Assembly (NCBI RefSeq): GCF_057098645.1
Contig: NZ_JBXSPU010000002.1
Length of the DNA stretch: 64,000 nucleotides
Reading direction: 5' to 3' (one strand)
Source: a plasmid
Each line of letters opens with the position of its first letter. Positions within the stretch are counted from its first letter, which is position 1. The notes under the pieces are model-generated. The model searched no databases and was not told where the DNA came from. It worked only from the letters and a program-made list of their open reading frames with translations. The position numbers and the translations under genes are program-made. Positions 41,192-62,905 of this stretch are shown piece by piece.

Positions 41192-42154
41192 GTGTGGCAC
41201 GGTTCACTGGCCGGACGGAGTCCCCCCGCCCTTCTGATGCTTCCCCGTTTTGCCGACATTTTTCAGCAGGGAAACCGCTGGCTTAACTGGCTGGAGAAAC
41301 AACCGGAAGGTTCTGTGCGTCCGGTGGTCATTGAGTCGGTGACAAAAATCATGGCATGCGGAACCACGCTGATGGGGTACACACAGTGGTGCTGTTCATC
41401 TCCGGACTGTTGCCACACAAAAAAGGTCTGCTTCCGGTGTAAAAGTCGCTCCTGCCCGCACTGCGGAGTGAAGGCTGGCGCACAGTGGATACAGTATCTG
41501 CTGAGTCTGGTTCCCGACTGTCCGTGGCAGCATATTGTGTTCACACTTCCCTGCCAGTACTGGTCCCTGGTGTTCCACAACCGGTGGTTACTGGCAGAGA
41601 TGAGCCGCATTGCTGCGGATGTGATACAGGAAATCTGCCGCCAGGCAGATGTGGTGCCGGGGATATTCACGGTGATCCACACATGGGGACGTGACCAGCA
41701 GTGGCATCCGCACATTCACCTGTCGACAACGACCGGCGGCGTGACATCAGACCACACCTGGAAAAACCTTCATTTTTACGCCCGTAAGGTGATGAGTATG
41801 TGGCGTTACCGGATAACGCAGTTACTGTCACGGAAATATCCGGACCTGGTGATACCGGATGCGCTGGCAGCAGAAGGAAGCAGTAAACGGGACTGGAATC
41901 GCTTCCTGGACAGTCATTACCGGCGGGGCTGGAATGTCAACGTATCCCGGGTGATGGATAACGCCACACATGTGGCGGTGTACTTCGGCTCTTACCTGAA
42001 AAAACCGCCGGTGCCGATGAGCCGTCTGGAGCACTATGCTGGTCAGGATGAAATTGGTCTGCGTTACAACAGTCACCGGACAAAACGGGAAGAATACCTG
42101 GTGATGAGTGGTGATGAGTTTATGGAAAGGTTCTCCTGGCATGTGGCGGATAAG
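41192..42154 (+). pseudogene. IS91-family rolling-circle (HUH) transposase, 3'-truncated by the Tn3-family element
   Basis: Zinc-finger-like CxxC...CxxC then HTWGRDQQWHPHIHL motif; ORF end is encoded by the transposon inverted repeat. Confidence 0.65.
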
Positions 42155-42338
42155 GGGGTTCCGTGGGAATTTCTGCGATAACACCCGCTAAGCGATTCCT
42201 CCCTGACGGAAATCACTTGTTTTCCGTCAGGTCCTGCAGTTGAAGAAAATTGAATCCATAAATCTGTGATTTTTTGCGTGACAAACCCTGTCGGAATGAG
42301 AAACTGTACGGAAACTTCAATTTTAAGGTTTGTCGTAC

Positions 42339-42962
42339 ATGTTGATTGGTTATATGCGGGTATCAAGCAATGATGAACGTCAGTCAGTTTCTTTGCAGCG
42401 TGATGCGTTGATTGCTGCTGGAGTGGATCCCCGGCATTTACATCAGGATCATGCTTCAGGTGCTCGTGATAATCGCCCGGGACTTAAGTCCTGTCTCGCT
42501 GAACTTCGCGAAGGTGATGTACTGATAGTCTGGAAACTGGATCGACTTGGTCGTTCACTCTCACATTTGCTCCGAATTATTGAAGACCTGAAAATTCGTG
42601 GTATTGCTTTCCGATCATTGACTGAATCTATTGATACAACAACGCCACACGGCTCGTTCCTCTTTAACCTTTTTGGCACGCTCGCGGAGTACGAAAGAAC
42701 ACTTATCACAGAACGCGTTAATGCTGGTCTGGCTGCTGCTCTCCGGCGGGGGAGAAAAGGCGGAAGGCCACCGGCGATAGATGCTGAAAAGGTTGATCAA
42801 ATCCTCGCAGCTCTGGAAGGAGGTGCCAGTAAAGCGTCAGTATGTCGCGCATTCAGTGTGCCACGCTCAACGCTCACCGATACTCTACGACGAATTGGCT
42901 GGGCCGGACCTGGGGGGCGTAATCTGACAACGGATCAGAGCAATGTCATTTCTCGACTCTAA
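42339..42962 (+). CDS. tnpR: serine recombinase (resolvase)
   Basis: N-terminal GYMRVSS catalytic serine context; C-terminal HTH. Confidence 0.8.
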   Translation: MLIGYMRVSSNDERQSVSLQRDALIAAGVDPRHLHQDHASGARDNRPGLKSCLAELREGDVLIVWKLDRLGRSLSHLLRIIEDLKIRGIAFRSLTESIDTTTPHGSFLFNLFGTLAEYERTLITERVNAGLAAALRRGRKGGRPPAIDAEKVDQILAALEGGASKASVCRAFSVPRSTLTDTLRRIGWAGPGGRNLTTDQSNVISRL

Positions 42963-60790: not shown

Positions 60791-61640
60791 GCGCAGGCAA
60801 CTGCGGCCAGACGAAGCGGCCCCGCTCCAGGCGTTTGGTGAAGAGGCACAGTCCGTCGTTGTCAGCCCACAGCACTTTTATCTGGTCACCCCGGCGTCCG
60901 CGGAAGATGAACAGATTCCCGGAGAACGGGTCATCCTTCAGGACGTTCTGAACTTTTGAGGCCAGGCCGTTAAAACCATTTCGCGGATAAGTGTCTGTAA
61001 TAACGCCGGTGTCAGTTCATCTTTCAGCCTGAGAGTTCCGGCCGGCAGAACCAGCTCACAGCACAGACTGTCGGACGGTGTATTTATCTGCTCTGGTTCC
61101 TGTGCCGGATCTGGGATTTTATTATCCGGCTCCGGCGTTAACGTCACGGGAAGCAGTGCAGTCATATTTTTTCCGGAAGGCAGCAGGCCACCTTTCCGGT
61201 ATTGATGGCGCCAGTTGAAGAGCAGGTTATCATTGATTCCGTTTTCACGGGCGATCTGCGCCACACGGGCTCCGGGCTGCAGTGACTGTTCCACTAAGGC
61301 GATTTTAAACTCATAAGGAAAATTAGGCCGCCGGGGGCATTTTTTTACCACCGGGACTTCGGACATAACGGTGTTTTCAGTAAGTACGACAGATACTGTG
61401 GAGGCACTCCCGTAAAGACGGGCATCAAGTTCCCGCTCCGACATACCTGCGGGCAGAGGCCATGAAAGGCCAGCTTTGCGGAAGCGCACGAACATACCAC
61501 AAACTGTTGATTTTGGTACGCCCAGGCGATGTCCGGCCACAATCCGTGGTAAATGTTCTTCAAAGTGAAGACGTAAAGCTTCAGTGATCCAGGTCCGGTA
61601 TTCCATACGATAGTGTCCATTAAAAATGATGGACATTATT
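60790..61640 (-). mobile_element. mosaic of IS66-family (orfA, 5' orfB) and IS21-family (5' istA) fragments
   Basis: 232-aa ORF is a fusion: IstA-like HTH N-terminus then IS66 OrfA-like sequence; reverse strand at 60800-60940 encodes an IS66 OrfB-like start. Confidence 0.55.
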
Positions 61641-62134
61641 TTTGTGGAGCCGGAGGAAACAGACCGGACGGTTCAGATGAGGCGCTTACGAACAAACTGA
61701 AACTGAAGGTGAATGAGAAGAAGAGCGCGGTGGCGCGCCCGTGGGAGCGGAAGTTCCTCGGGTACAGTGTGACATGGCACAAACAGGCGAAGCTGAAAAT
61801 AGCCCTGACGAGCGTGAAGAGGCTGAAGGAGAAAGTCCGCAGTCTGACCACGGGAAACCGGAGCAAATCAGTGAAAGCGACAATCAATGCCCTGACGCCA
61901 GTGCTGCGTGGATGGATAAGCTACTTCAGGCTGAGGGAAGTCAGAGGAGTGCTGGAAGAGCTGGACGGCTGGATCAAACGGAAACTGCGGTGCCTGTTGT
62001 GGCGGCAGTGGAAGAGTCCGGGAACCCGGACGAAGAACCTGCAAAGAGCGGGGCTGAGTAAGGACAGGGCGATGAGCTCAGCGTACACGTGTTTGCCCGC
62101 CGGTATGTCTCTTTCAGGTGTTTTAACAGACTGA
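61640..62134 (+). pseudogene. group II intron RT/maturase, C-terminal fragment
   Basis: Domain X-like sequence (LRGWISYFRL ... WRQWKSPGTRTKNLQRAG); no RT N-terminal half. Confidence 0.6.
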
Positions 62135-62905
62135 TAAATAAGGACGAACCTTTACTGTTCCCACCAACGTAGCTGACTTTTCCCGTACCGCTGTGCAGCG
62201 CACCGGCAAGATAGTACTTTTCATTCTGACCCGGCGTGACAACGCGCTTTTGCTGCCCACGTAGCTGCCAGTCTGTGCGCTGACAAAACGCAGACGGTTA
62301 CCGCACAGTATGCATTTCAGCGGGTCAACCTTCAGTAACTGCTGGTAAATCCCTCTCAAGGTGATTTGCCTCGCCGTTTTTCTCACCGTCTCTGTTATGA
62401 CGTACACCACGTCTTCCAGTAACCGGCGTTTCGCCGGACTCAGGAACCCGTAGTACCTCACCATACGGAACCCCTTATCCGCCACATCATCACCACTCAT
62501 TAACAGATATTCTTCCCGTTTTGTACGGTGGCTGTTATAAAGCAGTCCGATTTCATCCTGACTGGCATAGTGCTCCAGTCGGCTCATTGGCACCGGCGGC
62601 TTTTTCAGGTAAGAGCATGAGTACACCGCCACATGCGTGGCGTTACCCATCACCCCGGATACGTTGACATTCCAGCCGCGGCGGTAATGACTGTCCAGGA
62701 AGCGATTCCATTCCCGTTTACTGCTTCCTTCAGCAACCAGCTCATCCTGTATCAACAGTTCCGGGTATTTCCGTGACAGCAACCGTGTTATCCGGTAGCA
62801 CCACATGCTCATCATCTTACGGGCGTAAAAATGAAGGTTTTTCCAAGTGTGACCTGATGTCACTGCAAAATGGCATCTAAATCGATCACGGTTTGGCATT
62901 GTCAA
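62123..62905 (-). pseudogene. IS91-family transposase, C-terminal fragment, same family as the 41192 fragment
   Basis: HTWKNLHFYARK ... YLKKPPVPMSRLEHYA near-identical to the 41192 ORF, then continues to a native C-terminus. Confidence 0.65.

Follow-up and report, generated by a model that had tools for sequence, protein, structure and literature searches.

Inverted IS91-family fragments in an IncF Escherichia coli virulence plasmid as probable independent relics of two IS91-like elements

In the stretch of DNA analyzed here (64,000 nucleotides, hereafter the window), two IS91-family transposase fragments are separated by about 20.1 kb and encoded on opposite strands, as the first-pass annotation had recognized. 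These pieces, IS91-A on the left and IS91-B on the right, are very probably inert remnants of different IS91-like insertion sequences (ISs), carried by separate modules and truncated separately; neither is able to transpose, and it is incidental that they lie in inverted orientation. The carrier is a mosaic IncF E. coli virulence plasmid, and large virulence plasmids of E. coli and Shigella are patchworks of IS debris. A and B are ordinary debris of this kind; in public plasmids of near-identical sequence, both already bear an annotation as partial transposase pseudogenes. The value of the result lies mostly in correct annotation, and its outcome is negative: evidence for a 20-kb inversion is absent, so that the order of the virulence modules (per, SPATE, and espF-like) is best taken as inherited en bloc. 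The sole plasmid-specific event is the joining of the virulence block to the side that carries an IS3-family element and IS91-A, the joint lying at the left terminus of a Tn3-family element.

IS91 comprises orf121 and tnpA within about 1.83 kb, encodes a rolling-circle HUH/Y2 transposase, is bounded by terIS and oriIS ends, and uses the target CTTG/GTTC, while its Orf121 protein includes residues V49, L55, L68, V75, C105, and C108 (bioRxiv 10.1101/2025.01.24.634351). Intact relatives of the window fragments share this plan: they span about 1,833-1,845 bp, carry a CGAG (CTCG) site and a palindrome at the left end, and are followed at the right end by CAAG (pE105-1) or GAAC (pEQ011), the complements of CTTG and GTTC; the full 121-aa ORF of the pEQ011 relative carries all of the Orf121 residues listed above. 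Compared with intact IS91-like variants, the A-type sequence differs by about 7-10% of nucleotides and B by about 11-15%. Unlike functional ISs, both A and B are truncated and lack terIS and oriIS, and for this reason cannot be regarded as functional; the terminal sequences of the intact relatives (L001 5526-5715; L003 3210-3300) have no counterpart next to A or B. The left relic and its neighbor are organized as follows:

39796..41106, minus strand: IS3-family element (IS1203/IS629-like), 1311 bp, which truncates the left side of IS91-A inside orf121
39839-40726, minus strand: orfB of the IS3-family element
40655-40771, minus strand: ALIL frameshift pseudoknot of the IS3-family element
40726-41052, minus strand: orfA of the IS3-family element
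41107..42154, plus strand: IS91-A relic, with the last 42 codons of orf121 (41109-41237) and tnpA codons 1-306 (41237-42154)

Profile searches with fragments A and B recover the HUH/Y2 transposase with N-terminal Zn-binding domain that typifies the IS91 family. In A, these comprise the Pfam domains Zn_Tnp_IS91 (PF14319, 68 bits) and Y2_Tnp (PF04986, 115 bits), as well as a match to the NCBIfam IS91 model NF033538 at 239 bits (cut-off 125, model positions 2-295). As in IS91 proper, the tail of the Orf121 homologue overlaps the start of tnpA: codons 80-121 (YPEIARCTEREF...MYCPECGTVHW...), including a CxxC motif, are kept and end at the tnpA ATG at 41237. The start of A, previously placed at 41192, therefore has to be moved, tnpA beginning at 41237 and IS91 DNA at 41107; its end at 42154 was well placed, being the exact junction with the inverted repeat (IR) of the Tn3-family element. 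A is 99.85% identical in nucleotides and 100% in amino acids to the intact 395-aa tnpA of pE105-1, and its source is a currently active, widely distributed IS91-like element with orf121 and a 395-aa HUH/Y2 transposase gene. What A lacks is terIS, the last 89 codons of tnpA, and oriIS. Its terIS end was lost through insertion of the IS3-family element, a junction that recurs in at least 53 plasmids; in EHEC-type plasmids, A matches an ‘IS91 family transposase’ that adjoins katP and the IS3 element. Also gone are the 3' quarter of A and oriIS, since the sequence runs straight into the left IR of the Tn3-family element with no target duplication, and the 3' remainder was found nowhere in the 64-kb window.

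The right relic is bounded by other types of mobile element:

62079..62273, minus strand: IS630-family transposase fragment adjoining the 3' side of IS91-B (NCBIfam NF033545, E = 1.3e-6; annotated by PGAP in relatives)
62285..62863, minus strand: IS91-B relic, an internal tnpA piece that covers about residues 168-375 of 395 and has lost 24 nt in frame
62864..62900, minus strand: remnant of an IS21-family terminus, 35-37 nt (...GATGCCATTTTGCA), 92% identical to 16678-16714
62899..64000, minus strand: 22-nt flank (62899-62920), then an ISL3-family (ISEc38-like) element with its IR from 62921, which exits the window

B had been delimited as 62123-62905 and taken for the 3' fragment, but these are chance ORF limits: IS91 homology extends from 62863 to about 62285 (at most 62267), and the piece is internal, its true 3' end and oriIS being missing along with the Zn domain, the HUH motif, and terIS. 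Y2_Tnp is its sole Pfam domain (PF04986, 51 bits; cut-off 20.9), and its NF033538 score of 79 bits falls below the cut-off of 125, since no more of the model is left than positions 168-355. B, an older and internal piece, belongs to an IS91-like lineage that has diverged: against three intact variants, themselves 90.5-92% identical to one another, its identity is 87.5-89.1%, and it has about twice as many nonsynonymous differences as these. A search for a closer intact relative among 72,556 PLSDB plasmids and 5,426 complete E. coli genomes gave no match of >90% identity other than nine plasmids that share the same context, six of which are also among the 5,426 genomes. In these nine other plasmids both B junctions recur at 99.7-99.9% identity, and in relatives B is 99.7-99.8% identical to a PGAP feature with identical neighbors, described as ‘transposase; missing N-terminus and C-terminus’. 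B is fixed within the per / SPATE / espF-like module, common to at least nine plasmids.

The IS21-family remnant, whose start is overlapped by the 22-nt flank by up to 2 nt, marks an insertion that truncated the 5' side of IS91-B; an IS21-family element may have inserted at about tnpA nt 505, and a later deletion would have removed the 5' part of IS91-B together with most of that element. In pEQ011, an intact IS91-like element has its terIS end 30 nt away from the same ISL3 IR and flank. A simple 966-bp deletion relative to pEQ011 was rejected as the whole history of B: the 35-37-nt IS21-family terminus stands at the junction, and the ISL3 flank is 98% identical between window and pEQ011, as opposed to only 85% for the adjoining IS91 DNA, which means that a ‘deleted in situ’ history would require replacement of the IS91 part or its independent acquisition. 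A group II intron was likewise rejected as the cause of the 3' truncation, the neighbor being the IS630 fragment; Rfam detected no intron 3' end (domains V/VI) at this boundary, with nothing at E ≤ 1 in 61900-63000.

The overlap between the two relics, which the first-pass annotation had called near-identical and assigned to the same IS91-family transposase, extends over about 125-137 codons (blastn E = 2e-143) and places them in two sub-lineages of IS91-like elements. Over 377 ungapped nucleotides, 336 positions are identical (89.1%) and 41 differ (10.9%), corresponding to 108 of 125 identical residues in protein (86.4%), and this stretch is followed by the 24-nt in-frame deletion of B, absent from A. 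The differences are spread evenly (7, 11, 5, 8, and 10 per 75 nt), and their distribution over codon positions (7/8/26) is biased towards the third, which shows that the two lineages diverged while both were still coding. The longest exact runs are 30, 29, 21, and 20 nt. Chimeric tracts are absent: A is A-type throughout, being 100% identical within the overlap to the intact 395-aa IS91-like transposase gene of pE105-1, and B is evenly diverged throughout. Common to both fragments are about 413 nt of the reference (tnpA nt 505-917). Such substantial divergence on nucleotide alignment is the outcome that had itself been named beforehand as pointing to independent copies.

The wider arrangement was compared with that of pCAU16175_2 (NZ_CP047380.1), pZ1323HEC0399-2 (NZ_CP148350.1), pE105-1 (NZ_CP072312.1), and plasmids of the pO111/pO145 type. 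Window positions 42155-64000 are collinear in pZ1323HEC0399-2, in the same order and orientation, with an MFS transporter gene rather than IS91-A adjoining the Tn3-like element on the left, and the 14-kb block 49993-64000 is a single collinear piece in the nine B-bearing plasmids. In all related plasmids the A-to-B interval is oriented as here with respect to B and the ISL3 flank, and no flipped form was seen. PGAP-annotated IS91 remnants in aEPEC/EHEC plasmids match A and B, and the junction between A and the Tn3-family element (A|Tn3) occurs in none of those searched. The uninverted arrangement that the first-pass annotation had proposed to look for in related plasmids did not emerge, and neither did a pair of new junctions.

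That a single IS91 copy was split by an inversion of roughly 20 kb with a breakpoint inside tnpA fits the geometry, A retaining the 5' part on the plus strand with its 3' break facing inward and B lying on the minus strand with its 5' break facing outward, and was a sensible idea until the two sequences had been aligned; it is nevertheless vanishingly improbable. One copy cannot hold about 413 nt twice, and the pieces, far from being complementary with identical shared sequence, differ at 41/377 positions and by the 24-nt indel. The breakpoints are moreover mismatched, since A adjoins a Tn3 IR and B an IS21-family remnant. A single inversion should have generated two new junctions together, but only A|Tn3 is unique; the two junctions of B pre-exist in nine plasmids, and 42155-64000 is collinear in a plasmid without IS91-A beside the Tn3-like element. 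Of the two possibilities raised by the first-pass annotation, two degraded copies or one inverted copy, the former therefore stands in the form of independent relics and the latter falls on the 10.9% divergence and the indel.

It is also highly improbable that A and B are recent transposition copies of one element that decayed within this plasmid. Their membership in the same IS91/orf121 clade and their 89% nucleotide identity would suit such a history, but intact copies elsewhere match A at 99.85-100% identity, whereas for B no intact sequence exceeds about 90%, the excess of third-position differences (26/41) shows divergence of coding lineages, and the A and B modules are distributed differently among plasmids. 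Recombination between two full-length inverted IS91-like copies, inverting the interval before both were truncated, could have been seeded through RecA by the exact runs listed above; the constant orientation of the interval in all related plasmids and the non-chimeric nature of both fragments make it extremely unlikely. Finally, the 377-bp inverted stretch could support a rare RecA-dependent inversion of the 20 kb, with a flipped isomer in some cells; to this, together with the separate idea of a joining point at the Tn3-like element, we give a very small chance. Two relics of separate origin, truncated separately, hence constitute the preferred reading, and the event that is particular to this plasmid is located at the Tn3-family element:

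42155..45942, plus strand: compact Tn3-family element, 3,788 bp, with 38-bp IRs at 42155-42192 and 45905-45942 (2 mismatches)
42330-42962, plus strand: tnpR of the Tn3-family element, serine resolvase gene
42943-45909, plus strand: tnpA of the Tn3-family element, 988-aa DDE_Tnp_Tn3 transposase
45943..46190, plus strand: 3' piece of a transposase gene of the IS3 family, which forms the conserved flank to the right of the Tn3-family element (annotated by PGAP as ‘IS3 family transposase, partial’)

The 38-bp IRs (GGGG...TAAG), the serine resolvase gene, and the DDE Tn3-type transposase place this element among the Tn3-family transposons. It differs from a simple insertion in having no 5-bp target-site duplication (left, ATAAG; right, TATGA), which points to a secondary rearrangement, and in combining a constant with a variable flank: five plasmids share an identical sequence on the right, and on the left each of the three compared has a different one. 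The A|Tn3 junction has no match in any plasmid record searched and is the only junction unique to this window. Tn3-family transposons generate adjacent deletions and inversions by intramolecular transposition, and exchange flanks via recombination at res. The junction may have arisen when the left end of the transposon underwent a secondary event, for which the candidates are adjacent deletion via intramolecular transposition, a model that we infer, and recombination of two transposon copies with each other, either at res or by homology. The predicted precursor was searched for as a chimeric query (intact IS91-A 3' end, yacBA, and Tn3-like left end), and no PLSDB record covered ≥80% of it; a plasmid copy annotated as ‘IS91-like element IS91’ is 93% identical across this query, with the intact A-type 3' end as the IS91 part. 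Several plasmids carry IS91, yacBA, and the sequence up to the transposon insertion site, and none has the transposon there plus IS91. A second Tn3-like copy is absent from the 64-kb window, and the missing 3' part of A could lie beyond it, next to such a copy, which, if present and flanked by ATAAG and then GGGTTCCGTATGG, would indicate an origin of A|Tn3 by two-copy recombination. The constant right and variable left flanks also underlie the idea that virulence modules are repeatedly joined at the Tn3-like left end or res site, which, taken together with a rare flipped 20-kb isomer, is very unlikely.

The 20-kb interval carries the Tn3-like element, a third IS91-family relic (IS91-C) split by IS21, an espF-like gene, a SPATE gene, and per. 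IS91-C represents a distant IS91-family lineage and, with its insertion, is laid out as follows:

46250..46967, plus strand: 5' part of IS91-C, with a region that in relatives holds an ORF of 62 aa and with the N-terminal Zn domain of tnpA
46968..49098, plus strand: IS21, 2,131 bp, inserted in IS91-C, with TG...CA termini
47069-48241, plus strand: istA of IS21
48238-49038, plus strand: istB of IS21
49099..49992, plus strand: 3' part of IS91-C, C-terminal half of Y2_Tnp

The 5' part of IS91-C contains a terIS-like palindrome, GGCAGCCTGGCGGCTGC, at 46260-46276. The intervening element is recognizable as IS21 by its istA and istB genes, its termini, its length of about 2.13 kb, and a 5-bp target duplication, TCTGC, at 46963-46967 and 49099-49103, and its insertion site in IS91-C is uninterrupted in pCAU16175_2 and pZ1323HEC0399-2.

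IS91-A (41107-42154, plus strand) and IS91-B (62285-62863, minus strand) derive independently from two IS91-like sub-lineages, and neither remnant is functional. Both have lost terIS and oriIS; also missing are the C-terminal quarter of the transposase in IS91-A and, in IS91-B, the Zn domain and HUH motif. Their inverted layout arose incidentally as modules were assembled in a heavily IS-ridden IncF virulence plasmid, and their status as IS91 debris is known biology, already annotated.

Features referred to in the text (strand where assigned)
14175-16593, minus, istA/istB (istA 14947-16593, istB 14175-15173) of the IS21-family element matching the remnant beside IS91-B; subterminal repeats at 16609-16714
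39796-41106, IS1203/IS629-like IS3 element, 1311 bp
41192-42181, plus, ORF bearing IS91-A: IS91 Zn-binding and Y2 transposase domains
42155-45942, compact Tn3-family element, 3,788 bp: only tnpR and a 988-aa tnpA; 38-bp inverted repeats, 2 mismatches
46250-46967 and 49099-49992, IS91-C, a relic of a distant IS91-family lineage
46968-49098, IS21, 2,131 bp
50108-51270, ORFs of an IS3-family element
51529-51996, EspF-repeat effector gene
52088-56071, SPATE autotransporter
56470-58218 and beyond, minus, group II intron, apparently complete; RT/maturase ORF 56554-57780
62079-62273, IS630 fragment adjoining IS91-B on its 3' side
62123-62905, minus, ORF bearing IS91-B: partial Y2 domain only
62864-62900, IS21-family terminus remnant, 35-37 nt, adjoining IS91-B on its 5' side; ends ...GATGCCATTTTGCA

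The first-pass annotation had recognized two inversely oriented pieces of an IS91 transposase some 20 kb apart, and this holds: the distance is 20.1 kb, and they overlap by about 125-137 codons, far above chance (blastn E = 2e-143), covering positions 2-295 (IS91-A) and 168-355 (IS91-B) of the 356-position NCBIfam IS91 model. The overlap is not near-identical, as had been stated, since the ungapped alignment of 41741-42117 with 62863-62487 (377 nt) matches at 336 nt (89.1%) and at 108 of 125 amino acids (86.4%), and just past it IS91-A keeps 24 nt (8 codons, EFMERFSW) that are missing from IS91-B. The 41 differences are evenly distributed (7, 11, 5, 8 and 10 per 75 nt) and fall mostly on third codon positions (7/8/26 for positions 1/2/3), indicating that most of the divergence arose while both lineages were functional genes.

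Of the two origins initially proposed, two degraded copies or one copy split by inversion, the former is borne out. A single inversion-split copy should leave complementary pieces and two novel junctions, and both predictions fail: the fragments share about 413 reference nt, 11% diverged, a substantial divergence, and both junctions of IS91-B already exist in nine plasmids, in several of which the 14-kb block 49993-64000 is one 99.9% collinear piece. Comparison with related plasmids likewise yields no uninverted arrangement, pZ1323HEC0399-2 having the same order as the window from 64000 to 42155: ISL3, IS91-B, IS630 fragment, intron fragment, IS66 tnpA, per, group II intron and SPATE, followed by espF-like gene, IS3, IS91-C, IS3 fragment and Tn3-like element. 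Past the left repeat of the latter it carries an MFS transporter gene, whereas the window has IS91-A. This junction between IS91-A and the Tn3-like element (42154/42155) is the only one that no record searched contains; the plasmid is set apart by a single new junction, where an inversion would have made two. The one noteworthy possibility left is that the homeologous inverted repeat of 377 bp, with exact runs of up to 30 nt, could now and then mediate inversion; the data hold no sign that this has happened.

The elements initially listed between the fragments (Tn3-family, IS21, IS3, effector, SPATE, intron) are all present, but a third relic, IS91-C, had been overlooked. Only 29-53% identical to IS91-A in amino acids, it is truly one copy split in two, by insertion of the complete 2,131-bp IS21, bordered by a 5-bp target duplication (TCTGC), and not by inversion. 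IS91-C is uninterrupted in pCAU16175_2, where window 64000-49098 runs directly into 46970-46250, and in pZ1323HEC0399-2 it encodes an intact 399-aa tnpA. The interval also holds a second, different and fragmentary group II intron (60444-62134, plus strand), whose D1-D4 RNA (60444-60732) is parted from its maturase domain (61613-62134) by an IS66-type tnpA (60938-61636).

IS91-A is 99.85% identical in nucleotides to the gene for an intact 395-aa 'IS91 family transposase' of pE105-1 (NZ_CP072312.1), and 100% in amino acids over residues 1-306. Its left edge falls within orf121, the small gene upstream of tnpA that typifies IS91 (bioRxiv 10.1101/2025.01.24.634351), of which codons 80-121 with the CxxC motif are retained, ending at the tnpA ATG (41237); the 1311-bp IS3 element took out the remainder together with the terIS end, at a junction that at least 53 EHEC/aEPEC-type plasmids share. 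Four copies of this IS3 are present (17905-19215, 22045-23355, 31817-33126 and 39796-41106), 95-98% identical, one inverted. pE105-1 has katP, this IS3 and IS91-A side by side; in the window, katP-IS3 (to 23355) and IS3-IS91-A (from 39796) lie about 16 kb apart, the gap falling between two direct IS3 copies.

The right edge, 42154, abuts the 38-bp GGGG...TAAG inverted repeat of the Tn3-family element; the blastn match reached 42164 because the first ten repeat bases coincide with IS91 sequence. No target-site duplication surrounds this element (ATAAG left, TATGA right). Its right flank (IS3-family 3' fragment, then IS91-C) is identical in five plasmids, whereas the left differs in all three compared, being IS91-A in the window, the yacA side in pCAU16175_2 and the MFS transporter gene in pZ1323HEC0399-2. 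Secondary events at the left end would fit this pattern, which suggests repeated rearrangement at the left inverted repeat or res side. The 3' end of IS91-A may have been lost by adjacent deletion through intramolecular transposition, or when two copies of this common transposon recombined, at res or homologously. In pE105-1 yacB-yacA follows the intact A-type element, and in pCAU16175_2 it precedes the Tn3-like element. An adjacent deletion of about 1.4 kb in a hypothetical IS91-A, yacBA, Tn3-like ancestor would generate the window's junction; such an ancestor was searched for and not found, so that this step is only inferred.

IS91 homology in IS91-B is limited to 62863 to about 62285 (62267 at most), residues ~168-375 of 395, the remainder of its 260-codon ORF being read-through into unrelated DNA. 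Three intact IS91-like variants (pE105-1, pEQ011 and E. albertii pEA7_1), 90.5-92% identical among themselves, share 87.5-89.1% identity with IS91-B, which shows about twice their nonsynonymous differences. Among 72,556 plasmids and 5,426 complete E. coli genomes, no relative exceeds 90% identity apart from nine plasmids (six also among these genomes) with the identical fragment in identical context, where PGAP labels it 'transposase; missing N-terminus and C-terminus'. On its 3' side, past the IS630 fragment, lies the fragmentary group II intron, downstream of which, next to IS91-B, no domain V/VI was detected.

On the 5' side, the orphan remnant copies, at 92% identity, the extreme end of the IS21-family element whose istA/istB lie at 14175-16593 and which ends in 4-5 subterminal repeats (16609-16714) of ATGCCAAAyyGTGATCGATT. 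Beyond the remnant come a 22-nt flank and the inverted repeat of an ISEc38-like ISL3 element at 62921. pEQ011 carries the same repeat and flank, there separated by 30 nt from the terIS end of an intact, equally oriented IS91-like element of 1.83 kb. This suggests that the 5' part of IS91-B was lost in situ by IS21-family insertion and then deletion. That history is not simple, because pEQ011 (2101-3210 against window 64000-62899) is 98% identical over the ISL3 element and flank but only 85% over the adjoining IS91-like DNA, a discordance suggesting that the IS91 part was replaced, or acquired independently at the same ISL3 junction. Within the ISL3 element lies a single 308-codon ORF (62949-63875, minus strand) whose two ends match the NCBIfam ISL3 model and whose middle matches an IS21-family transposase N-terminal segment (residues 72-167). 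It may represent a pseudogene, either chimeric or frameshifted; in relatives the ISL3 transposase is annotated as frameshifted.
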